From positions 31,303 to 95,302 of the forward strand of contig JAHDFM010000006.1 in NCBI GenBank assembly GCA_020628165.1: a stretch of 64,000 nucleotides of DNA, given 5' to 3'. Below the pieces are notes generated by a model. The model had not been told where the DNA came from. It saw nothing but the letters and a program-made list of their open reading frames with translations, and ran no database searches. A program made the position numbers and the translations under genes. This DNA comes from Bdellovibrionales bacterium (GTDB lineage: Bacteria > Bdellovibrionota > Bdellovibrionia > Bdellovibrionales > UBA1609). Shown piece after piece: positions 2,343 through 54,567 of this stretch. Within the stretch, counting starts at the first letter, position 1; the number at the start of each line of letters is the position of its first letter.

Positions 2343-4361
2343 TCAATCGAGCATGGCTAAAAATTGCTCGATTGATAAGACTTTGACGCCGAGATCCTCG
2401 GCTTTTTTTAATTTTGAGCCAGCAGCTTCTCCTGCAATTAAATAATCTGTATTTTTACTCACGCTCCCTGGTGAGCTACCACCATTCACTTCAATGGTTT
2501 TTTTCAAATCACTGCGTTTGTAATTATCAAAGCTTCCTGTGATAACAAACTTTAGCCCTTTTAACTTTTTAGAGGCATTAGTGACATCACTCTTTGCGAT
2601 CTTAACACCATTTTTAAGCAAGTTCTGAACTTCCTTAACGAAGTCTTTATTGCTCAAACTTGAAGTGATGGAGCTTGCTACTTTGGGTCCAATATCATTG
2701 AGAGCCAACAGGTCTTCTTCGGTGGCTTTTAAAAACGATGGCACGTCTTGATAATAATTGGCTAAGGTTTTAGCCGTTTGCTCACCGACAAAACGAATTC
2801 CAAGGGCATAAATAAAACGGCTAAGCTCTGGCTGTCGGCTGGCATCGATGCTTTTAATAATATTGTTGGCCGATTTTTCACCTTGTCGCTCCAAGGGAAG
2901 AATGTCTTCTTTTTTAAGTGTGTATATATCAGAAAAAGTTTTCACTAACCCTTCGGTCCAAAGTTGTTTGGTGATTTGCTCTCCGAGCTTATCAATGTTC
3001 ATGGCTTTTTTACTGACAAAATGTTTAAGGGACTCCTTCACAACAGCGGGGCAAAAAAGGTTTGGGCAACGATAAACAGCTTCGTCTTCATTTTTTTCAG
3101 CCTTGGTTCCACACACGGGGCATTTTTGGGGAAACTCATAAGCAACAGATGACTTTTTTCTTTTCTTTAAGACAACTTCCACAACCTCTGGAATAACATC
3201 ACCAGCTCTTTGCACCACAACGGTGTCGCCGATGCGCACGTCTTTACGAGCAATTTCACTTTCGTTATGAAGAGTGGCGTTGGTGATGGTCACGCCCCCC
3301 ACAAATACAGGTTCCATAATTGCCACAGGCGTGAGTGCGCCAGTTCGACCCACTTGTAACACAATATCTTTAATGACTGTGGTTTCTTGTTTTGGTTTGT
3401 ACTTGGCAGCCGTTGCCCAGCGCGGGCTTCTGGCGACAAAGCCAAGTTCTTGCTGTAGCTGGAAGGAGTTCACTTTCATGACCATGCCGTCGATTTCAAA
3501 CTCGAGTTGATCGCGCACACTTTCGATGAAGTGGTAGTGTGCCACTGCCTCTTCTGCGTTTTTACATTTTTTAATGATTGCAGATTTTTTAATTTTTTTT
3601 GCAATTAAATTTGGGATTTTTAATTGGTTGACGGCCTCTAAGAATTGATAGTGAGAGTCGGCACCGTGACCGTCAATCACTCCTGGGGCGTAGGCGTAAA
3701 AACGCAATGGGCGGGTGGCAGCCACTCGAGAATCGAGTTGTCTTAACGTTCCAGCGGCGGCATTGCGAGGATTGGAAAAGGTTTCAAGCCCTTGACTCAG
3801 TTGCCCCTCATTGAGTGATTCAAAGTCACTTTTGTGTAAGAGCACTTCCCCGCGCAGTTCAAAAACGTCTGGCACGGCCCCGGCATCAATTTTTAATGGA
3901 ATGGTCTTAATAGTTTTGGTGTTCAGTGTGACATCTTCGCCAGTAGTTCCATCCCCGCGAGTGATGGCTTTGGTGAGCAAGCCTTTTTCATAAACTAATT
4001 CAAGAGCTAAACCATCAAGTTTTGGCTCGCAAATGAACTCTACGTCTTCATCTGAATTTAAAAATTTTTTGATGCGCTCATCAAAGGCTAAGATATCATC
4101 TGGAGAGTAACTGTTTTGCAGTGATAGCATAGGTGTGCGATGTTTAACTTTACTGAACTTATCTAAAGGCGTTGAACCGGCGCGCTGACTTGGCGAAGTT
4201 TCGGTAACAAGCTCAGGGTGCTTGGATTCGAGCTCTAAGAGTTCATTGAAAAGTTGGTCGAACTGGTAATCACTGATGGTTGGTTTATCCAGTGAGTGAT
4301 AGTTGTAATTGTGCTGTTCAATTTCTATGGATAATTTTTTATGCTTTTCTTTGTAGTTCAA
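2343..4361 (-). CDS. ligA: NAD-dependent DNA ligase
   Basis: 672 aa. Adenylation motif EPKLDGLA, Zn-finger CPVCG...CPNLFCPA, and a C-terminal BRCT-like GLKFVITGSF. Confidence 0.97.
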   Translation of the reverse strand: MNYKEKHKKLSIEIEQHNYNYHSLDKPTISDYQFDQLFNELLELESKHPELVTETSPSQRAGSTPLDKFSKVKHRTPMLSLQNSYSPDDILAFDERIKKFLNSDEDVEFICEPKLDGLALELVYEKGLLTKAITRGDGTTGEDVTLNTKTIKTIPLKIDAGAVPDVFELRGEVLLHKSDFESLNEGQLSQGLETFSNPRNAAAGTLRQLDSRVAATRPLRFYAYAPGVIDGHGADSHYQFLEAVNQLKIPNLIAKKIKKSAIIKKCKNAEEAVAHYHFIESVRDQLEFEIDGMVMKVNSFQLQQELGFVARSPRWATAAKYKPKQETTVIKDIVLQVGRTGALTPVAIMEPVFVGGVTITNATLHNESEIARKDVRIGDTVVVQRAGDVIPEVVEVVLKKRKKSSVAYEFPQKCPVCGTKAEKNEDEAVYRCPNLFCPAVVKESLKHFVSKKAMNIDKLGEQITKQLWTEGLVKTFSDIYTLKKEDILPLERQGEKSANNIIKSIDASRQPELSRFIYALGIRFVGEQTAKTLANYYQDVPSFLKATEEDLLALNDIGPKVASSITSSLSNKDFVKEVQNLLKNGVKIAKSDVTNASKKLKGLKFVITGSFDNYKRSDLKKTIEVNGGSSPGSVSKNTDYLIAGEAAGSKLKKAEDLGVKVLSIEQFLAMLD

Positions 4362-4641: not shown

Positions 4642-4911
4642 ATGGACATTGAAAACGTGGCGTCTCTTGCGAGATTGCAACTCTCTGAAGATGAAAAAAT
4701 TAAATTCAAAGAACAAATGGGATCCATTCTTAATTACTTTGAAGATCTTAAAGATGTGAATACTGAAGGAGTGGAGGCTTTAGTGACTCCCACAGACATA
4801 AACAAAGACTATCGAAAAGATGGTTCTGTTTCTTGGGACAAAGCCAGCGATGCACTAGAAATTGCTCCACTTAAAAAAGGCAACTTGTTTCAAGTGCCAC
4901 CGGTTGTATAG
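4642..4911 (+). CDS. gatC: Asp/Glu-tRNA amidotransferase subunit C
   Basis: 89 aa with LARLQLSEDE...F..L, directly upstream of gatA and gatB. Confidence 0.9.
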   Translation: MDIENVASLARLQLSEDEKIKFKEQMGSILNYFEDLKDVNTEGVEALVTPTDINKDYRKDGSVSWDKASDALEIAPLKKGNLFQVPPVV

Positions 4912-18872: not shown

Positions 18873-21737
18873 ATGGATGATAATAAATGGATTCTTCGCT
18901 CTGAAAAAGGGAAAATAACTGGCCCTTTCACTACTCGTGAAATTTTGCAAAAAATTAAAAGAAACGAGATCAGTGGTGCAGAGAGCATTTCAAAATATCC
19001 AGGCGGTGAGTGGCGACCGATCAGTCACAACTCAGAGTTTTATGATTTTTTGTTATCGCATTTGAGTCAGGCCAAGGTCTTTGACGATGATGAAACCAAC
19101 TGGGACATCACGCCAGATACAAAATCACTTAAATCAAAAAGTAATATTCCTGAGAAGTCTTTGTCGAAAGATGATGTCGAAGAAACTCCTGAGTTTCCAA
19201 AAGACGATGAGCTAATACCTTCAAAAGTTACTCACAAGCAACAAGTTTTTAAAGATAGCGACGGTTTCGATTTTTCAAAAAACATTGTTGATAAAATAAA
19301 AAAAGAAGAAAAACACCGAGAAAGAAAACAGGCGGCATCGAGCCAAAAATCAAAAAAACACAAAAAACCTAAGAAAAAAAAGAAAAGTCTTTTACCACTT
19401 ATTACAATTATAGCTGTTGCAGCTGCCATCATTTATGTTTTAGGCACTGTAAAACTTGAGACACTCGTCGAGAACCATGTGCAGTTGTTAGTGCCCGTAG
19501 AAAATATTCAGATGAAGCCTGAAGATGTAAAAGAAGTGGCCGAACAAGGAATCCGTGACTTCACTAAAGACACTTTTCAAGGATATATGAGTGCGCAAAA
19601 AAAATTCGTGCAAGTGTTAGAAGCCGACAAAACTTATGGTGATATTTTTTCACTTTTATGCTTATCACATTATAATCTTTGGAATTTCACTAGTAAAAAT
19701 GCAACGGCTCTTAAAAAAATCATTTCAGTTGTTAAACTGGTTGAACAATTCGACCCAAGAAGTCTTAATTTTTATAATTGCAATAATTCTTATTTGATAT
19801 TGAGTGGCAACACAGAAAAAGCTTATGAGAATTTAAAAAGCATCATAGATAAAAATGCTGACAGTCAGTCGCAACCCACGTTTTCTTATTATTTATTAAC
19901 TAAATTACTACAAAAAGATCAAAAGTACAGTGAAGCCATTGAGTATGCAGAAAGACTTAATAGTGTTTGGTCAGAGTGGGCTGCTGGTGATTTTTTAAAA
20001 GCCCAGCTTTATTTTGAGTTTGGTGAGCGCGATAAGGCCATACAAAGTTTTAAGAACATTTTGTCGGTGAATCCAAACAACAAAAAAGCTAGAGTTTATA
20101 TTGGCATGATGCGGAATAAATTCTATAAGCAGTTTGAAAAGTCGCAGGAAGAAATCAAGGCTTCATTAAAAATGCGAGGTCGTTTAGATCCCAATATTAT
20201 GGGCTTAGCTAATTATTATTTAGCAGACTCAAGCCTACAAATGGATAAAATGGAGGCTGCTCAAAAATATTCTGAGATGGCTTATAAGTTTTTTCCGACA
20301 GATAAAAAAATAGAAAGTCTTTATGTGAATTTTTTTGGAGAAGAAGGCAAGGTCACTTTGTCAGACATTTCTTATGTACAGCAAGGTGATCAGTTGTTTG
20401 CTAGCAAAGATTACAACGCAGCTCAAGCTTACTATAAAGAGGCTCTAAAAATTAATAACAAAAACACTGAGGCCGCTATAAAAGCTGCAAAGAGTTTGGA
20501 GAAACTCAACTTGGGTGAAGAGTCTGTTGAAATTCTCAAGCGCTCATTAAGCATAAACCCTGAAAGTGTTTATGTTTCAGTTTTACTTGCACGCTTTTAT
20601 ATGAAGCAATTTAAGTATCAAGAGGCGTTTGAAGTTTTAAACACAACCCACAAAAAGGTGAGGGGGCATTACAAAATATATCTAATGTTTGCTGAGGTTG
20701 AGTTAGAGCAACAGCATTTTATAGGCGCTATTAAATATGCCGACAAATCATTAAAAATTTATGGCGAAAACGCACAAGCCTTTGTCATTAAAGGACGGAC
20801 GTATTTGCTTATGAATGAAAATAAAAAAGCTTATTCAGAGTTTTTGCGGGCTATTGATCTTGAACCTAGTAATACTACTGCTAATGCTTATTTCATAAAA
20901 GCCTACTACCGAGTGCTCGGTATGGACGCAGCAGTACGTCGAGCAAAAAAACTCATCGCTCAAGACGAGACTCAATTGGCTTATCACCAAGTTTTAGGAG
21001 AGCTTTATTACGAAGACGAGCAGTTTACCCAAGCCGAGAGAAAATTTAAGCAGATCATAGAGATCGATAATAAATATGTAAAAGCCTATATTTGGCTAGC
21101 AGACACATATAGACAATTGCGCCAGCTGAACGATGCAAAGGTGAATTACTTTAAAGCTGTAAATATTGACTTACAAAATTCTGAGCCACAGTTAAAACTA
21201 GGGTTGCTCTACCTGGAAACTAAGAATTTCAAAAAAGCCATAGATCAGTTTAAAAACATCATGCGTTTGAATGAGAATGTGCCAAAGGTTAAATTCTATT
21301 ATGCCAAATCACTTTTTCATTTAAAGCAATATCAGAAAGCTCTTGAGCTTTTGAAAAAAGAAAAAATTGCCAACCCAAGCAATGTGGAGTCTTACTTGCT
21401 TGCTGGAGAGATTTACGAAATTTTGGGGCAGTATTTACTTTGCAAACGTGAATTTCAACAAGCGCTCAAATATCGTGAGTTTGGGCCGGCTTTTTATATT
21501 CTTGTGTCCAGGTGTCATAGGAAGTCGGGGTCTTTAGATGTAGCGGTGAATATGCTTGAAAAGGCGCGTGGGTTGTCTCCTAATTTGCCAGACATTTACC
21601 GTGAGCTTGGGGCTGTTTATGAAGCGAAATCTGACACTGAAAAAGCGGTTTGGTCTTATGAGCGGTATTTGTTTTTGGCTCCTACGGCGGTGGACTTTAA
21701 TCAGATTTCTAATAAAGTCCGCAATCTTTCTAATTGA
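18873..21737 (+). CDS. GYF_2-like N-terminal domain, TM helix, long TPR-repeat protein
   Basis: N-terminus W.L....G...GPFT..E....I......ISGAE.....GGEWRPI is GYF_2-like. K-rich linker, TM LLPLITIIAVAAAIIYVLG, then about 700 aa of TPR-like repeats. Confidence 0.85.
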   Translation: MDDNKWILRSEKGKITGPFTTREILQKIKRNEISGAESISKYPGGEWRPISHNSEFYDFLLSHLSQAKVFDDDETNWDITPDTKSLKSKSNIPEKSLSKDDVEETPEFPKDDELIPSKVTHKQQVFKDSDGFDFSKNIVDKIKKEEKHRERKQAASSQKSKKHKKPKKKKKSLLPLITIIAVAAAIIYVLGTVKLETLVENHVQLLVPVENIQMKPEDVKEVAEQGIRDFTKDTFQGYMSAQKKFVQVLEADKTYGDIFSLLCLSHYNLWNFTSKNATALKKIISVVKLVEQFDPRSLNFYNCNNSYLILSGNTEKAYENLKSIIDKNADSQSQPTFSYYLLTKLLQKDQKYSEAIEYAERLNSVWSEWAAGDFLKAQLYFEFGERDKAIQSFKNILSVNPNNKKARVYIGMMRNKFYKQFEKSQEEIKASLKMRGRLDPNIMGLANYYLADSSLQMDKMEAAQKYSEMAYKFFPTDKKIESLYVNFFGEEGKVTLSDISYVQQGDQLFASKDYNAAQAYYKEALKINNKNTEAAIKAAKSLEKLNLGEESVEILKRSLSINPESVYVSVLLARFYMKQFKYQEAFEVLNTTHKKVRGHYKIYLMFAEVELEQQHFIGAIKYADKSLKIYGENAQAFVIKGRTYLLMNENKKAYSEFLRAIDLEPSNTTANAYFIKAYYRVLGMDAAVRRAKKLIAQDETQLAYHQVLGELYYEDEQFTQAERKFKQIIEIDNKYVKAYIWLADTYRQLRQLNDAKVNYFKAVNIDLQNSEPQLKLGLLYLETKNFKKAIDQFKNIMRLNENVPKVKFYYAKSLFHLKQYQKALELLKKEKIANPSNVESYLLAGEIYEILGQYLLCKREFQQALKYREFGPAFYILVSRCHRKSGSLDVAVNMLEKARGLSPNLPDIYRELGAVYEAKSDTEKAVWSYERYLFLAPTAVDFNQISNKVRNLSN

Positions 21738-21799
21738 GTCCCTTTCTTTCTTTGTTTGCTTTTGTTCTTTCTGGTGGGAGTTGAGTGCTATCACCCAAA

Positions 21800-21907
21800 G
21801 AATTCAAACCCTTATGTCTCGTACTCAGACAGCCATGGGCAGCACCGCTCACCGATGGCGAGCAGCGCACCCATGGAACTGCGTGCGAGACATAAGGCTT
21901 TGATTTC
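21800..21907. other. 108-nt GC-rich extended hairpin (candidate structured RNA or terminator)
   Basis: The 22-nt outer arms are 20/22 complementary. Inner helices ccatggg/cccatgg and gctc/gagc. The core is far more GC-rich than its surroundings. Confidence 0.45.
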
Positions 21908-22235
21908 TTTTAGTGTTTAGATCCTATTTTTTTGGAAAGAACAAAGGGGGCGCACCTGTGAACAAGTTCTCGGTTGGGTGGGGTGTGATGTGGGTTTGCG
22001 GTGGTGAGTGGTAGTATTGTAGTTTTTATGGGTTTTGGGTTTGAGTTGTTTTGGTTGGATATCTTTCTTGGGGATGATTTTTGGTGTTGGGTTATGGCTT
22101 TTTATGTAATTTTTTTATTTCTTTTTTGTTAGGTTCTTGGTTTCTTATTTTTGGTCTTGTTAGTTCGAGATTGGCTTTCTTTTATTGGTCTCAATTGTTG
22201 CCTTTTTAATTGAGCTAGACTTATTTGCTTGAATC

Positions 22236-22541
22236 ATGCAAACTAGTTGCATGCAAGATTTATTGAGTGCGCCTCCTAAGAAGAAGATTAATTTTAATGA
22301 GATGTTTTGTTATGCCTTCAGGCTAACTATTGGTATGGGGCTTGGGATCATTTTGTCGGTTGCCAGTCAGGAGATCTGGGGTTTTGGTCAGATGTTGAGT
22401 ATTTTTATTGTCTTGTCCTGTGTGTTTTTAGTTTTGCGTATCACTAGGAAGTGGAGCCTAGCCAAGGTTTCCATTTTGGGTGTGAATTTTGTTTTATTTT
22501 TTGTGTTTTTACAAACTTATATCAGTGTGGCTCCGGAATAA
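22236..22541 (+). CDS. Hypothetical small membrane protein (uncertain)
   Basis: 101-aa ORF with three hydrophobic stretches. No SD sequence. Its composition continues the G+T-rich tract upstream. Confidence 0.35.
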   Translation: MQTSCMQDLLSAPPKKKINFNEMFCYAFRLTIGMGLGIILSVASQEIWGFGQMLSIFIVLSCVFLVLRITRKWSLAKVSILGVNFVLFFVFLQTYISVAPE

Positions 22542-22544
22542 AAA

Positions 22545-23864
22545 ATGATTGATTTTAAAAAACTAACTGCAGATACCGTCGACGAAAAGTATGGAGAGGT
22601 TTTTTTCAAAGCCTATAAAAATAATTTAATCCATCGTGGTGATAATGCCGACGATTTAGATGTCATTATGGGTTTAATTGCTGAGCGCAAAAAAGCCATC
22701 AATGATTTTGAAACTTCTAAGGCGGAGCAAAATAAGTTTGGTCAAGAAATAGCTCAGCTTAAAAAAGCAGGGGAAGACGCTGCGTCTGCAATTCAAGGCT
22801 TGCAGGAGATCAAACAAAAAAATAAGTATCTTGAAAAAAAACTGGAAGACATTGAAGTGCAGTTTAACGACAAACTTGCGCGCATTCCTAATATGTGTCA
22901 TCCGGATGTTCCTGTAGGAAAAGATGAAACTGAGAATGTTGAAGTCAAAACTGTCGGTGAAAAAAAGAGTTTTGCTTTTCCGGTTAAAAATCACATTGAG
23001 CTGGGACAAGACTTAGACATCATTGACTTTGAAAGAGCGGCTAAAGTAACTGGAGCTCGTTTTGCTTACTTAAAGGGTGCGGGTGCTGCTCTTGAGAGAG
23101 CTTTGATTCAGTTTATGTTAGACATTCATGTGAGCCAACACGGTTATCGTGAGATCATTCCGCCTTACATCGTTAATAGCAATAGCCTTTATGGCACAAG
23201 TAACTTTCCAAAGTTCAAAGAGGATGTGTTTCATTTAGAAGGCACTGATTATTATTTAATTCCTACATCTGAAGTTTCTGTGACTAATATTTATGGTAAC
23301 GAAATTTTAAAGGAAGAGCAGTTGCCACAAAAGTATGTGGCCTTTTCACCGTGTTTTCGTTCTGAGGCTGGTAGTTACGGAAAAGACACTCAAGGTCTTA
23401 TTCGACAACATCAGTTTCATAAGGTAGAGCTATTAAAGTTCACTCATCCTGATAAATCTTATGAAGAGCATGAGCTCCTTACTAAAAATGCTGAGAAGAT
23501 TTTAGAAGATCTTGAGATTCCTTATAAAAGAATGCTTTTGTGCACTGGGGATATCTCGTTTGGGGCGGCCAAGTGTTTTGATTTAGAGGCTTGGTTACCG
23601 GGGCAAGAGAAGTACCGCGAGATTTCTTCGTGTTCAAACTTTGAAGACTTTCAAAGTAGGCGAGCTAATATTCGTTTTCGACCAAGTGGTGAAAAGGCAA
23701 AGCCTCAGTTTGTTCACACCTTGAATGGGTCAGGGCTTGCTGTGGGCCGAACTTTAATTGCCGTATTAGAAAATTATCAACAAGAAGATGGATCTATTAA
23801 AATTCCAGACGCATTAAAAAACTATATGGGCGGTCGGGAGTTTATTAAAAAGGAAACACCATGA
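22545..23864 (+). CDS. serS: Seryl-tRNA synthetase
   Basis: 439 aa. N-terminal coiled-coil arm and class II core ([33 protein letters not shown]). Confidence 0.97.
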
Positions 23865-27066: not shown

Positions 27067-28998
27067 ATGAAAGATTTAAGCAGTTTAAAAGATCTTGGTT
27101 TAGAAACAAGTGACACGATCATTATTGGTGTTGTTGTTTTAGCTTTCATTTTAACCGTACGAGCTTTCGGAAGTTACTTCGCGAGATTTAATAACAACAT
27201 CAATGATTTCTTTTTCAGTGGTCAAAGATTTTCATGGTGGTTGCCTGCTGCTAGTATGGTGGCTACGGGCATTGGTTCTTATAGTTTTTTAAAATACTCT
27301 GAGCAGGGCTACAATACCGGCATGAGTAGCACCATGACATACATGAACGATTGGTTTGCCGTTCCGTTTTTTGTTTTTGGTTGGTTGCCGATCATTTATT
27401 TTTCGCGCATCAAATCTGTCCCTGAATATTTTGAACGTCGTTTTAACACCTTTGCAAGATACATCGCTTTAGTGATTCTTCTTGCTTATATGTTCTTTTA
27501 TATTGGATACAACTTCTTTACATTGGGTTTGGTTTTCGATGAGCTTTTTGGCATTAGCCAGATGTACTCTATTCCGATCATTGGAATTTTCATTGGTGCT
27601 TATGTGACCTTCGGTGGTCAAACAGCCGTGATCTTCACCGATTTATTTCAGGGGATCATGCTTTATGTGGCAGGCTTTATTGCTGTGTTTGCAGGTATCT
27701 ATGCCCTTGGTGGATTTACTGAGTGGTGGGGTTGGTTGCCAGAAAGTCACCGACTTCCATTTGTACATTTAACAGACAATCCAAAGTTTAATACCGCTGG
27801 TTTATTCTGGGGAGAAGCTCTCGCAGGAAGTATCGCCTTTGGTTTTATGAACCAAGGATTCTTAATGCGTTACTTAAGTATCAAAAGTGTAGATGAAGGC
27901 AGAAAGGCTGCGTTCTTTAACGTGCTTGTAACATTGCCAGTGTCAGCGATCATTGTTGGTGCCGTTGGTTGGATCGCAAAATCATTGATTATGAAACAAG
28001 CCGCAGAAGGCGGAATCTCAGGTTATGAGTCATTTCAAATCACAGATACTTTCGTAACTTTTTTAATCGTGTGCTGGACAACAGTGAAACAAAATCCATG
28101 GGTTTTTGGTTTTGTTTTATCAGCACTTTTAGCTGCACTGATGTCAACAACAGACACTTTGATCAACGCCTGCGCTGCTGTCGGAATTTACGATCTATAT
28201 AAACCCCTCGTTAAAAAAGACGCCGACGATGCCCATTACTTAAAAGCAGCAAGATGGGTGTCAGTAGTGACAACAATCATTGGTATGTTGTTGGTCGTCT
28301 GGTTCGTTAACCAAGACGGCAGTTTGATGTCGATTCACTATAAAGGAATCATGATCATCATCCCAGCCATTGTAACCACCATTTTCTTAGGCGCTTTCTG
28401 GCGTAACTTCACTGCCTTAGCAGCCTGTGTGTCCATGATCGTGGGCAGTGTAGTAACAGTGATGAGTGTTTGGTCCCCAGAGTGGATCGATGGTTTAGCC
28501 GCATTTGTATCTGGCCCACAAAATGGAAAATATTATTATATGCGCGCCTTATTTGGAATGCTACTAACAGGCACAGTGGGTGTTGCCGTCACGTTAGTGC
28601 AACATTGGTTTTTTCCAAAATCAGTTAAAGATAATCTAGAGCGCTCAAATGGTTTAACCATAGACACCCTAGATAAAGCCATGGAAAATTACAAAGACGG
28701 TATACCAAACCACGAAATTGGTGAAAAAGTTTACGAGCTCAACATACAAATCGATGATAGCTTAGAAAAAAACTACGTCTCCATGAACGCCGCCAATTTA
28801 GAAACCCTGAAGGCAAAAGATGAAGACCTAGTTTATATAGCAGACAGCAGATGGTATCTAGGAGGCTTAAGATCTAACCACGTAAAAGTAAAACTAGACA
28901 ACACCCTAGAAAACCAAACAATAAAAATGTCAAAAGCAACTCACACAGAGGCTTATTTATTGGAAGGTAAAAAACTAAACATAGAAAAAATCTTCTAA
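27067..28998 (+). CDS. Sodium:solute symporter (SSS) family transporter with an extra C-terminal soluble domain
   Basis: 643 aa with about 13 hydrophobic helices and SSS-like motifs (GGQTAVIFTDLFQG). The last 110 aa or so are hydrophilic. Confidence 0.9.
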   Translation: MKDLSSLKDLGLETSDTIIIGVVVLAFILTVRAFGSYFARFNNNINDFFFSGQRFSWWLPAASMVATGIGSYSFLKYSEQGYNTGMSSTMTYMNDWFAVPFFVFGWLPIIYFSRIKSVPEYFERRFNTFARYIALVILLAYMFFYIGYNFFTLGLVFDELFGISQMYSIPIIGIFIGAYVTFGGQTAVIFTDLFQGIMLYVAGFIAVFAGIYALGGFTEWWGWLPESHRLPFVHLTDNPKFNTAGLFWGEALAGSIAFGFMNQGFLMRYLSIKSVDEGRKAAFFNVLVTLPVSAIIVGAVGWIAKSLIMKQAAEGGISGYESFQITDTFVTFLIVCWTTVKQNPWVFGFVLSALLAALMSTTDTLINACAAVGIYDLYKPLVKKDADDAHYLKAARWVSVVTTIIGMLLVVWFVNQDGSLMSIHYKGIMIIIPAIVTTIFLGAFWRNFTALAACVSMIVGSVVTVMSVWSPEWIDGLAAFVSGPQNGKYYYMRALFGMLLTGTVGVAVTLVQHWFFPKSVKDNLERSNGLTIDTLDKAMENYKDGIPNHEIGEKVYELNIQIDDSLEKNYVSMNAANLETLKAKDEDLVYIADSRWYLGGLRSNHVKVKLDNTLENQTIKMSKATHTEAYLLEGKKLNIEKIF

Positions 28999-29077: not shown

Positions 29078-29170
29078 TTCTATCTCTGCGAAGAAACATT
29101 CATCCATTCCCGCTTCCGGCGGAGCAACGGCTCTAAGGGAATGGATGAATGTTTCTTCGTAGAGATAGAA
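29078..29170. repeat. Inverted repeat with 34-nt arms and a 25-nt loop
   Basis: Arms at 29078-29111 and 29137-29170 are complementary at 33/34 positions; the single exception would be a G:U pair in RNA. Lies between convergent genes. Confidence 0.85.
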
Positions 29171-29195: not shown

Positions 29196-29771
29196 TCACA
29201 AGATAGTCCGCTTCAAAACAGGAATGTGCCCCGTTTCGCCGACACTCTTAACAACAATTTTCCCCTGACTGCTCACTTTAACAATAGATAAACTGCACTC
29301 AAAGATCTCAAAATTCGACCAGGCTTCAATGGGAACTCCAAGGCACTTACAAATAAAGTAGCGAATGATATTGCCGTGACAGATAAGAACTTCATGTTTT
29401 TCTGTCTCTTTTTTGTTAGGCGCGAAGAAAACATTAAAAGCTTGATCCATGCGTTCCTTGTCCATTTTGATTTGCACCTTGTCCAATTTTTTTTGTTTAA
29501 TAAGAGGAGCAGGAACATAGGGAAGCCCTTCTTTTAAAAGGTGATGACTCTTGAGTTGTAAGTTAGAAAACTTTTCAATGACAGAAAGGGCAGTTTCTTT
29601 GGCTCTTAACAGTGAGCTTGAGTGAATTTTATCAACGGGGTAGTCAGTTAAACGTTTAGCGATGCAGTTGGCTTGATAGTGCCCTAAGCGCGTGAGAGAG
29701 CCGTAGGTGTCACTGTCTTTGTCCATGTCATACTGACCATGTCTAACAAGATAAATATATTTTAGAGCCAC
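29196..29771 (-). CDS. Histidine phosphatase (SixA/PGAM) family protein
   Basis: LVRHGQ catalytic motif and a downstream CHGN. Confidence 0.85.
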   Translation of the reverse strand: MALKYIYLVRHGQYDMDKDSDTYGSLTRLGHYQANCIAKRLTDYPVDKIHSSSLLRAKETALSVIEKFSNLQLKSHHLLKEGLPYVPAPLIKQKKLDKVQIKMDKERMDQAFNVFFAPNKKETEKHEVLICHGNIIRYFICKCLGVPIEAWSNFEIFECSLSIVKVSSQGKIVVKSVGETGHIPVLKRTIL

Positions 29772-53153: not shown

Positions 53154-54296
53154 ATGCTTCGTTTATTGATAATATTGTTAACATTAACTTCATTTGAGGT
53201 GGCCAATGCTGTGACCCACTTGATGAAAAATCAATATAAAAACAGATGGACACGTGACCTTCAATTTAATGACTTTCATCGCAATTCAGTTGTATGGAAT
53301 GATAGAAAAGAAGTTGAGTTGCAAATTTTTACTGAAACTGCAGAAGATGAATATACTCCGAACAACTCTGGCTCAGTCGAGGATGATGATAGGCTGAGAT
53401 TAGATGGGATCTACTATCATAAATTTAATGATCAATTTAGCTTAGAGTCTGAAGTACTTTATAACTCAACAGATACTGATGTTAAAAACTCAACAGACAG
53501 TTCAGAATTTGCCTATCTAACTATAAATAATAATTTGGGTTATAGGTTGAGCGATTCAATTGGTTTCTCATTCAACCTTGCTTACTTAGGTCTTTCTTTT
53601 ACTAGCAAATCAACAAGTAAATCTGAAAGTGAGTACGATTATTTAATTCTTGGACCTGGTGCCACAATTAAACTGAATGATACGTTTTATGCTGGAGCGA
53701 GCATTGAGCATTTTGAAGCCAAAAGAAAAGTAAAAGTAAACTCTGTTAGTATCAATTTGGACAATGAAAAATTCAGACAAACTCAGTTGTCTTTTAACGG
53801 TGGTATGCTCATTGGCACTGAAGATGACATGAACGGGTTTGTTGAAGTTAGAAAGTCATATATGTTTAGCAGTGATAACACTTACCTGAATTTGTCTGTA
53901 AATGGCTTATTGAATTTTTCTAAATCAATTCAAGGTTATACACTTTTATCATACAATAGAAATTTGACGAGCAGTAAAGATGAGGATTCATTTAGATTAG
54001 GAGTAACAAATGACAAACGTTTCTCACAGCTTGTAGGAATGGATTGGGAATTTAATAACTTTTATTTGAATCCTGAACTTAGCTACACAGTAGTGTCTAG
54101 TGCTGATAATCAAATCGATAGTGAGGGAAGTGCTGGTGTAGGGTTAAGATTCGGTTATCGTTATCAAGACATGGCTGACGCATACATTGGCTTCAACATT
54201 GATCAAGATAGTACTGAATATAAAGACAGCTCTTCTATTGATGAGTATAACCTCGATACACAAACTATCTATATAGGTGGAAAGTATCAGTTTTAA
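53154..54296 (+). CDS. Predicted outer-membrane beta-barrel protein
   Basis: GGAG SD then the MLRLLIILLTLTSFEVANA signal (an internal ATG of the listed ORF). Ends ...IYIGGKYQF. Confidence 0.7.
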   Translation: MLRLLIILLTLTSFEVANAVTHLMKNQYKNRWTRDLQFNDFHRNSVVWNDRKEVELQIFTETAEDEYTPNNSGSVEDDDRLRLDGIYYHKFNDQFSLESEVLYNSTDTDVKNSTDSSEFAYLTINNNLGYRLSDSIGFSFNLAYLGLSFTSKSTSKSESEYDYLILGPGATIKLNDTFYAGASIEHFEAKRKVKVNSVSINLDNEKFRQTQLSFNGGMLIGTEDDMNGFVEVRKSYMFSSDNTYLNLSVNGLLNFSKSIQGYTLLSYNRNLTSSKDEDSFRLGVTNDKRFSQLVGMDWEFNNFYLNPELSYTVVSSADNQIDSEGSAGVGLRFGYRYQDMADAYIGFNIDQDSTEYKDSSSIDEYNLDTQTIYIGGKYQF

Positions 54297-54313
54297 TTTC
54301 TAATTGAGTTAAC

Positions 54314-54349
54314 AAGAAGCCTCAGTTTATTCTAGAGGCTTCTTTTTTA
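54314..54349 (+). terminator. Rho-independent terminator
   Basis: aagaagcctc / gaggcttctt stem followed by a T-run. Confidence 0.8.
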
Positions 54350-54567
54350 TTAAATTCAATAATCGTATATTGTTAGCGGCAATCTCTTAGTAGTCAGAAA
54401 AAAGCTTAGATAAAAATATATCTATATTGACCACCCTAAAAATCTAGATCTCAATATTCGCAAATAATAATTAAACCCCTAAAATCATTAATTAATACGC
54501 CCACAAAGAGTGGAATAGAACTTGCTATGTTCTATTTATATTAACTCAAGTCGAACGTGGAGCGTTT

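Follow-up and report, generated by a model that had tools for sequence, protein, structure and literature searches.

How does a bacterial genome come to carry some 250 nucleotides (nt) in which four out of five bases on one strand are G or T, shortly upstream of serS, the gene for seryl-tRNA synthetase? We addressed this question in a stretch of 64,000 nt from a Bdellovibrionales bacterium (GenBank assembly GCA_020628165.1, contig JAHDFM010000006.1, positions 31,303 to 95,302 of the forward strand). This whole stretch is called the window below, and coordinates are counted from its first letter. The G+T tract lies on the plus strand between a gene for a TPR protein and a gene for a small membrane protein that precedes serS. 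It had been noticed in an earlier analysis of the letters alone (the sequence-only reading), which proposed several origins for it. The explanation that we favor is that the tract belongs to a lineage-specific, non-coding insertion that was skewed by strand-asymmetric loss of A and C, and we give this explanation as a whole a probability of roughly 0.45. Its two parts are not equally firm. That the tract is non-coding remnant DNA of a lineage-specific insertion is probable. That A and C were lost strand-asymmetrically from the sense strand, giving the tract its composition, is a tentative proposal that may well be wrong; we hold it at this level because the magnitude is far beyond that of ordinary bacterial skews, and because a hairpin inside the insertion carries no record of such a bias.

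The tract is real, statistically extreme and, so far, unique. Its core (21952-22201, plus strand) contains 29 A, 20 C, 75 G and 126 T (80% G+T). It is non-repetitive, G-rich in its 5' third and T-rich in its 3' part, and holds short, broken open reading frames (ORFs) in two frames (22001-22132 and 22081-22209). A recount of positions 21961-22200 gave 72 G, 124 T, 28 A and 16 C (81.7% G+T), exactly the figures that the sequence-only reading had obtained by hand, and the GGG and GGGG runs that it named are present. Across 21940-22235, G+T is 76.7%. In sliding intervals of 240 nt, G+T peaks at 0.829 (interval starting at 21966) against a mean of 0.510 for the 64 kb (standard deviation 0.054). The tract thus lies about 6 standard deviations above the mean and is the sole such outlier; elsewhere, values of at least 0.68 occur only in the adjoining small ORF, and values of 0.32 or lower nowhere. 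The highest 240-nt value among 165 other bacterial loci (1.52 Mb) is 0.696. No second copy of the tract was found in the window or in these 165 loci, and a literature search for comparable GT-rich bacterial tracts returned nothing specific. Two independent Logan assemblies (SRR14415273 and SRR14415274) both contain the tract, with no indels and two T/C differences, so it is not an assembly artefact.

To place the tract in its genomic context, we compared 12 orthologous loci, eight from Bdellovibrionales genomes (L003-L010) and four from closer relatives (L163, L164, L165 and L167). The SerS protein of the window is at most 60-62% identical to its best match in scans of species-representative genomes and Joint Genome Institute (JGI) metagenomes, and 70-73% identical to those of the four relatives, which came from a protein search; judged by this protein, the source of the window is a divergent member of the Bdellovibrionales. 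All 12 loci share the same gene order: a TPR protein of 930-980 amino acids, a membrane protein of about 97-115 amino acids, and serS. Between the TPR gene and the small ORF, L003-L010 have anything from an overlap of a few bases to a gap of about 60 nt. Gaps of 47-160 nt with ordinary G+T (0.45-0.48) separate these genes in the four closer relatives. In the window, the distance is 498 nt if counted to the ATG at 22236 and 513 nt if counted to 22251, the likely start. The extra DNA is absent from all four relatives with 70-73% SerS identity, and none of the 12 loci has a gene or ORF at the position of the tract, or room for one. The sequence-only reading had offered a decayed membrane-protein gene as one origin and had pointed to the regions upstream of serS in related genomes as the place where an intact version might be seen. 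That comparison shows no intact gene, and a decayed ancestral gene at this locus finds no support, either in the 12 loci or in the ORFs of the tract, which lack homologues.

The edges of the extra DNA are marked by a direct repeat. The left copy (CTTTCTAATTGAG, 13 nt, 21726-21738, plus strand) covers the end of the TPR gene (18873-21737), namely its final codons and its TGA stop (21735-21737), and the right copy (CTTTTTAATTGAG, 22202-22214, plus strand), which forms the right edge, differs from it by one C>T change, so that 12 of the 13 positions are identical. Matches to the 13-nt repeat with at most one mismatch are expected by chance only 0.25 times in the whole window on both strands, which makes a copy exactly at the predicted edge very unlikely to be accidental. 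The sequence that adjoins the second copy on its right (CTAGAC..., containing a -35-like hexamer) aligns with the intergenic sequence of the relatives. With a repeat at both edges and ancestral sequence immediately beyond, the extra segment is delimited to 21739-22214, about 476 nt, and in this comparison it is found only in the lineage of the window. We propose that a discrete insertion event created this segment and that the direct repeat would be a duplication of the target or attachment site. A 12-mer from the repeat (TTTCTAATTGAG) recurs at 54296-54308, at the stop codon of another ORF (53154-54296) and before a short terminator hairpin (54302-54356); this recurrence is probably due to chance.

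The same junction has received other DNA elsewhere. In L163 (positions 3646-3805 of that locus; 73% SerS identity), a different insertion of about 130 nt lies between the TPR gene and the small gene. It carries terminal inverted repeats of 17 nt (TTGATCGTTCATCTAGT and ACTAGATGAATGGTCAA) as well as direct repeats (ATCTAGTCA(T/C)TTAAC). This separate insertion indicates that the site tolerates insertions, and the junction between the two genes appears to be an insertion hot spot.

The segment itself is composite. It begins with a left spacer (21739-21791, plus strand) that is poor in A (3 of 53 nt), has 77% G+T and includes a degenerate CTTT run. A GC-rich, imperfect inverted repeat of 124 nt follows (21792-21915; 52% GC, compared with 38% for the window). 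Its G+T content is 0.45, so the skew of the tract is missing from it. A short spacer (21916-21951), which ends in AAAGGGGG, then leads into the core tract. The inverted repeat is predicted to fold into a hairpin of -66.3 kcal/mol (z -10.7), or about -95 kcal/mol with its outer, largely G.U pairs, and the values are similar on either strand. We found no second copy of it in the 64-kb window or in the 165 fetched loci. Because it lacks the skew although it is flanked on both sides by G+T-rich spacer, the hairpin may be a separate element that arrived later. A U-rich tail (CUUUGAUUUCUUUU) comes after it on the plus strand, and with this combination of a stable hairpin and a U-rich tail, sense transcription of the TPR operon may be terminated here. 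A consensus terminator scan did not call it, which we attribute to the limits that the scan sets on stem and loop size.

A second inverted repeat of the window lies at 29078-29170, between two convergent ORFs (27067-28998 on the plus strand and 29196-29771 on the minus strand). It is near-perfect, with 34-nt arms that are 97% complementary, a 25-nt loop and a folding energy of -64 kcal/mol (z -11); U tails are absent. The terminal sequences (TTCTATCTCT...) bear a loose resemblance to those of the hairpin at 21808-21899 (CTTATGTCTC...), and the two repeats may represent one family of hairpin elements.

We then asked whether the tract has coding potential. The sequence-only reading had stated that no ORF of 60 amino acids or more lies there, and the ORF list bears this out, with ORFs of only 33, 43 and 42 amino acids on the plus strand and 30 on the minus strand. 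Gene callers called nothing in the tract in either Logan assembly. For the 43-amino-acid ORF (22001-22129), a search of 1.84 billion representative proteins, run exhaustively with HMMER, gave no matches at E<=0.001, and a fusion of the three ORFs gave none at E<=1 in an index of 5.8 billion proteins. The ORFs of the tract have no Pfam match near threshold and no NCBIfam match, and a hidden Markov model (HMM) of the neighboring small-gene family gave negative bit scores in all six frames of the tract. No 3-periodicity was detected in the tract, in what are small samples. Under a periodic Markov codon model trained on the window, the tract never rises above background, although the real 101-amino-acid gene also scores about 0.

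These results bear on the possibility that the tract codes after all, either as what is left, after frameshifts, of a membrane-protein gene that came with the inserted DNA or as a set of tiny hydrophobic peptides, for instance a type I toxin-like peptide starting at GTG 21958. A Shine-Dalgarno-like run (AAAGGGGG, 21943-21950) precedes this GTG by 7 nt and opens an 18-codon ORF ending at TAG 22012-22014 (feature 21943-21960, plus strand); real genes in the window have similar G-run ribosome-binding sites. The best frame of the codon model follows the order of the ORFs (1, 2, 1), and peptides rich in Phe, Leu, Val, Gly and Trp can be read from all frames. However, this frame preference merely tracks the frames that are free of stops, the 18-codon ORF has no homologue, and no antisense promoter or partner RNA was found for a toxin-like peptide. 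Any G/T-rich sequence yields peptides of Phe, Leu, Val, Gly, Trp and Cys with few stops in every frame, so hydrophobic ORFs follow automatically from the composition and are not evidence for coding. The peptides are also nearly devoid of Lys and Arg, in contrast to the genuine membrane protein beside them, which has the usual positively charged loops. Taken with the absence of homologues, family matches and gene calls, and with orthologous loci that have no gene at this position, a coding tract is very unlikely. More generally, a tract of extreme G+T content will look like membrane-peptide ORFs in every frame.

The skew does not stop at the edge of the extra DNA. As the sequence-only reading had noted, it runs on into the 101-amino-acid ORF of the small gene, where G+T at third codon positions (G+T3) is 0.77. 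Across 1261 windows of 101 codons, G+T3 averages 0.506 (standard deviation 0.074) with a maximum of 0.762, and the highest value among hydrophobic windows of that length is 0.634. Within the small ORF, the frequency of A at third positions (A3) is 0.05-0.07 and that of G (G3) is 0.35-0.38; in serS, from its first codons, A3 is 0.25 and G3 is 0.07. The three closest orthologues of the small ORF have a G+T3 of 0.53-0.58. Over the complete gene, G+T is 0.66 in the window compared with 0.56-0.62 in all 11 orthologues, and the ratio of C to G is 0.50 compared with 0.61-0.89. At codons that encode the same amino acid, A>G differences outnumber G>A differences by 10 to 0 against L163 and by 8 to 3 against L167. 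Two smaller details agree with such a shift: at the one position where the copies of the direct repeat differ, the coding copy has C and the unconstrained one T, and both strain differences within the tract are T/C. Weaker evidence comes from upstream of the segment. Fourfold sites in the final 100 or so codons of the TPR gene have 0.06 A and 0.38 G, while the relatives have 0.32-0.33 A. Third codon positions in 21423-21722 of this gene are low in A and C, with a G3 of 0.35-0.40 (window mean 0.147). At the nucleotide level, a move away from A on the sense strand affects both spacers around the hairpin as well as the small gene and ends sharply at serS, and this observation is solid.

On the non-template strand, single-stranded DNA and transcription are known to produce too many C>T and A>G changes (PMC2927911). 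We suggest that the unconstrained spacer was driven toward G+T by A>G and C>T changes of this kind, that is, by deamination-type transitions of single-stranded DNA. The affected strand would be the sense, non-template and probably leading strand. In unconstrained DNA the bias would have been unopposed, and in the neighboring gene it would be visible at synonymous sites only. Alternatively, the spacer may have partly arrived with a G+T-rich composition.

Several observations weigh against a skewed insertion of this kind. A paired synonymous test on the last 102 codons of the TPR gene showed no shift (12 versus 11). The relatives share part of the high G3 at the end of the TPR gene, at twofold sites, so that part of this may be a trait conserved at that gene end and not belong to the skew of the tract. 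The comparison of the domain with its control was not significant (Fisher test, p ~0.23-0.25). Singleton substitutions relative to the relatives were not asymmetric, although these spectra are uninformative because synonymous sites are saturated at 70-73% SerS identity and the directions of change cannot be polarised. Among the mismatches between the arms of the hairpin, G.T is not in excess of A.C (1 versus 3 in the core and 7 versus 5 overall), which implies either that the hairpin is younger or that there is no strong ongoing bias. A skew of 82% is far above ordinary transcription or replication asymmetry, the plus-strand genes of the window averaging a G+T3 of 0.53, and an unusually strong local cause would be needed. 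Finally, the direct repeat comes without terminal inverted repeats or an integrase.

Some of the same observations would be explained if the composition had been imported. The segment could be a foreign G+T-rich fragment, such as the remnant of a single-stranded DNA element or of another integrating element that targets the 3' end of the TPR gene, and could have arrived too recently to change. Site-specific integration leaves just such a discrete segment, with a direct repeat (here 13 nt) overlapping the 3' end of a gene, the right edge of the skew is sharp, and the embedded hairpin shows no asymmetric decay. The different insertion in L163, with its 17-nt terminal inverted repeats, likewise indicates that the site accepts foreign DNA. 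Yet no match was found in 72,556 plasmids or 50,697 phage records, the matches to viral contigs are chance seeds, and there is no protein homologue. Import also leaves unexplained why the small ORF, which is a resident gene outside the direct repeat, differs at synonymous sites from all its orthologues. We consider import unlikely as the source of the composition.

The small gene deserves attention of its own. The sequence-only reading had called the 101-amino-acid ORF upstream of serS doubtful, which is wrong, because the family is conserved directly upstream of serS throughout the Bdellovibrionales. The gene (22236-22541, plus strand) is predicted to encode a small membrane protein with three helices; it has orthologues, and its synonymous sites are shifted toward G and T. 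The ORF shares the family motifs GQEI.G.G, R.T+.WSLAK and the C-terminal TYI.VAP(G)E. Judged by alignment, its start is probably the ATG at 22251, which would give a protein of 96 amino acids. A word-index search with the small ORF returned the window's own protein as the sole match; the ORF looked like an orphan because such a search misses its relatives. The family itself is uncharacterised (about 97-115 amino acids, three helices, C-terminal motif TYI.VAPGE) and matches no Pfam or NCBIfam model. This gene beside serS is real and worth annotating. It is followed by serS (22545-23864, plus strand), whose composition is normal from its first codons and which thus forms the sharp right edge of the skew.

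A promoter-like pair, TAGACT-N17-CAAACT (22216-22244, plus strand), ends 6 nt before ATG 22251, and its layout is common to the relatives: TAGACT-N17-CATAAT-N6-ATG in L163, TAGACA-N17-CATAAT-N5-ATG in L164 and TTGTCA-N17-CATACT-N6-ATG in L167 (at about 3825-3862, 932-968 and 4669-4706 of the respective loci, corresponding to 22216-22253 of the window). The -10 hexamer of the window (CAAACT) is weaker than the CATAAT or CATACT of the relatives, and the pair scores below the threshold of a consensus promoter scan. In the clade of the window, the small gene has no Shine-Dalgarno sequence, whereas the more distant relatives have an ordinary one. The conserved -35/-10-like layout ending 5-6 nt before the ATG suggests a promoter and a leaderless mRNA start at the small gene, both predicted from sequence.

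Could the composition serve transcription? The sequence-only reading had remarked that the complementary strand has the composition of Rho-utilisation (rut) sites and had proposed an antisense Rho trap. RhoTermPredict looks for 78 nt with a C/G ratio above 1, spaced C residues and a pause downstream (PMC6407284). The criteria considered were a stretch of at least 78 nt with C/G > 1, C residues at regular spacing (one every 11-13 nt, with YC dimers), RNA free of structure, and a hairpin pause at most 150 nt downstream. By composition, the strongest rut-like stretch lies at 21972-22049 on the minus strand, where 78 nt contain 36 C and 1 G, the most extreme excess of C over G on either strand of the window, and the remark on composition thus holds. 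Antisense C/G is at least 3 throughout 21925-22161 (about 240 nt). In 263 nt, the antisense strand has 77 C and 39 YC dinucleotides, with a largest C-free gap of 22 nt; these are counts and do not represent the exact spacing rule. The antisense RNA is predicted to be nearly unstructured (-11.3 kcal/mol over 301 nt), and directly downstream of the rut-like stretch in the antisense direction, within 150 nt, lies the inverted repeat (21915-21792), which folds equally well on that strand. The idea of an antisense trap is thus borne out as far as composition, lack of structure and a hairpin downstream are concerned. Transcription of this strand finds no support, since no promoter-like site faces the tract. 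Scans for sigma-54 and sigma-70 promoters on both strands found nothing in or facing it, and no promoter-like site on the minus strand anywhere in 21500-22700.

The sense RNA, for its part, is less rut-like than any other stretch of the window, and 98 of 100 shuffled versions fold better. A Rho-proof sense RNA is at least as plausible as the antisense rut site; it would let read-through from the TPR operon continue to serS although the insertion had weakened the local arrangement. Both properties could together have been selected as a one-way Rho insulator, the insertion lying within an ancestral operon that feeds serS. The C-poor, G-rich sense RNA would protect about 500 nt of untranslated RNA before the essential serS, and the C-rich antisense RNA with its hairpin would stop transcription from entering the TPR operon. 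An unstructured antisense stretch with 36 C and 1 G in 78 nt, followed by a hairpin of -66 kcal/mol, matches the rut-plus-pause layout of RhoTermPredict. The poorer -10 hexamer may let read-through from upstream matter more in the lineage of the window than in the relatives, and the shift of the small ORF toward G also lowers its C/G ratio (0.50, see above). Selection nevertheless seems a rather doubtful cause. Besides the lack of any promoter-like site on the minus strand of this region, antisense RNA from the convergent genes beyond serS would already have been untranslated for at least 1.5 kb and exposed to Rho earlier, and the hairpin with its U-rich tail may itself end sense transcription, which would make Rho-proofing pointless. 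Selection at hundreds of single sites for so weak a benefit is also implausible. If the insertion was instead skewed by mutation, as we favor, both properties would probably be by-products. The sense RNA would be poorly structured and would not load Rho, so that read-through past the hairpin could reach the small gene and serS, and any antisense transcript would bear the best Rho-loading stretch in the 64 kb, followed by a strong hairpin.

The sequence-only reading had also likened the plus strand to irregular telomere-like repeats and suggested that it could form G-quadruplexes (G4) with long loops. Neither telomere-like repeats nor an array of G-quadruplexes is supported. Tandem Repeats Finder (TRF) finds nothing in 21952-22201, and its k-mers are no commoner than in shuffled sequence, the counts of 4-8-nt k-mer pairs being slightly below the means of dinucleotide-preserving shuffles (z -0.3 to -0.85); the telomere-like look is a matter of composition only. 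A canonical motif of four runs of at least three G is absent from the entire window, with loops of 1-7 nt or of up to 12 nt. A two-tetrad motif occurs once, at 21992-22011. The G4Hunter score passes 1.5 only at 21970-21998, where it reaches 1.64, the maximum of the window; elsewhere in the tract no score is above 1.24.

The G-cluster around this peak (GGGTGGGGTGTGATGTGGG with flanking GG runs, 21964-22005, plus strand) is the sole segment with potential for a G-quadruplex or for the initiation of an R-loop, and it is free of any four-run motif. Its arrangement, GGG-N1-GGGG-N8-GGG, fits what we take to be the pattern of R-loop initiation. One may thus imagine that the tract is a structural element of DNA or RNA that tunes the adjacent promoter, through a non-canonical G-quadruplex or an R-loop starter at 21964-22005 or as a GT-rich tract bound by a single-strand-binding protein. 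The top G4Hunter score and the end of the tract 1 nt before the -35-like hexamer would suit such a role. We judge it highly improbable all the same, because the canonical motif is absent even with loops of up to 12 nt, G4 potential is low in the T-rich part that makes up about 200 of the 250 nt, G is too rare downstream (about 30%) for the extension zone of an R-loop, no repeated motif is there for a sequence-specific protein to read, and the element is conserved in no relative.

The G-cluster also enters a bolder proposal, in which mutation and function are joined. A hot spot of strand-specific damage to single-stranded DNA, for instance a persistent R-loop seeded at 21964-22005, might have pushed some 0.8-1.1 kb toward G+T, synonymous sites of a live gene among them, and so yielded a working one-way Rho insulator ahead of the essential serS. 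We regard this as decidedly unlikely. If it were true, it would be a natural case of local mutation bias making a regulatory element.

Other origins were searched for and rejected. Rfam 15 gave no match at gathering score in the tract, the only matches in the window being four tRNAs; at a relaxed threshold only hairpin-shaped chance matches to microRNA models appeared, far below gathering scores, and a T-box or other riboswitch in the tract is thus not supported by the Rfam searches. A decayed duplicate of the 101-amino-acid gene is contradicted by the negative HMM scores in six frames and by a DNA alignment no better than shuffles. A tandem duplication of the 3' end of the TPR gene (offset 476 nt) shows no similarity beyond shuffles and no match in the window after collapsing to purines and pyrimidines. 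Smith-Waterman alignments of the tract scored no higher than shuffles (z values of -0.81, 0.01 and -0.04), and neither the small gene, nor the 3' end of the TPR gene, nor serS is similar to it beyond that level. A hypermutated copy of other DNA of the window likewise found no match, including after purine/pyrimidine collapsing. We also rejected a diversity-generating retroelement, as neither 21250-21740 nor 22215-22545 is repeated in the window, although no scan was aimed at a reverse transcriptase. The plasmid and phage collections mentioned above lend no support to an origin from either, and four matches of viral contigs to an 18-mer pattern (16 specified bases) are seed-only, do not extend and are attributed to chance.

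What the tract would mean depends on which of these origins applies. If the skew arose in place, strand-specific A>G and C>T mutation in a bacterium would be recorded here with unusual clarity, in unconstrained DNA beside a constrained gene. If the composition was selected, it would show the preference of Rho used in both directions, with a sense RNA that is immune and an antisense RNA that is terminated, protecting an essential gene after an insertion. If neither holds, the segment is a harmless orphan insertion. A neutral insertion is the most probable outcome.

The insertion fits the full definition of none of the known systems with which we compared it, although it resembles each of them in part. 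With G-quadruplexes and telomere-like TG repeats, it shares a G+T-rich strand, GGG and GGGG runs and the top G4Hunter peak of the window, but the tract has no repeat unit or four-run motif and is mostly T-rich. Like rut sites and Rho-dependent terminators, its antisense strand is C-rich, nearly free of G over at least 78 nt and unstructured, with a candidate hairpin pause within 150 nt downstream. Unlike them, the rut-like stretch runs opposite to all local genes, and no promoter was found for it. Natural rut sites are also usually about 80-100 nt long with C/G mostly below 3, whereas the tract extends over about 250 nt with C/G above 20.

The resemblance to small mobile elements lies in the segment rather than in the tract. 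As in hairpin elements of the MITE (miniature inverted-repeat transposable element) or REP (repetitive extragenic palindromic) type and in remnants flanked by attachment (att) sites, the segment is lineage-specific, intergenic and flanked by a direct repeat, with a long inverted repeat inside, and the L163 relative has an insertion bearing terminal inverted repeats at the same junction. However, the inverted repeat of the window is internal, and the ends of the segment (GTCCCTTTC... and ...CAATTGTTGC) are not complementary. The segment is single-copy in the 64 kb and the 165 loci, no transposase or integrase lies nearby, and the bulk of the insert is a non-palindromic, keto-rich tract of a kind foreign to MITEs. 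The last system is the deamination asymmetry of single-stranded DNA, known from non-template strands and from the heavy strand of vertebrate mitochondria. Known bacterial skews of this type amount to a few percent over genes or replichores, while the tract reaches 82% over about 0.8-1.1 kb with a sharp right edge and an undecayed hairpin. Like that asymmetry, however, the tract loses C and A and gains T and G on one strand, and the same change is seen at the synonymous sites of the neighboring gene (PMC2927911).

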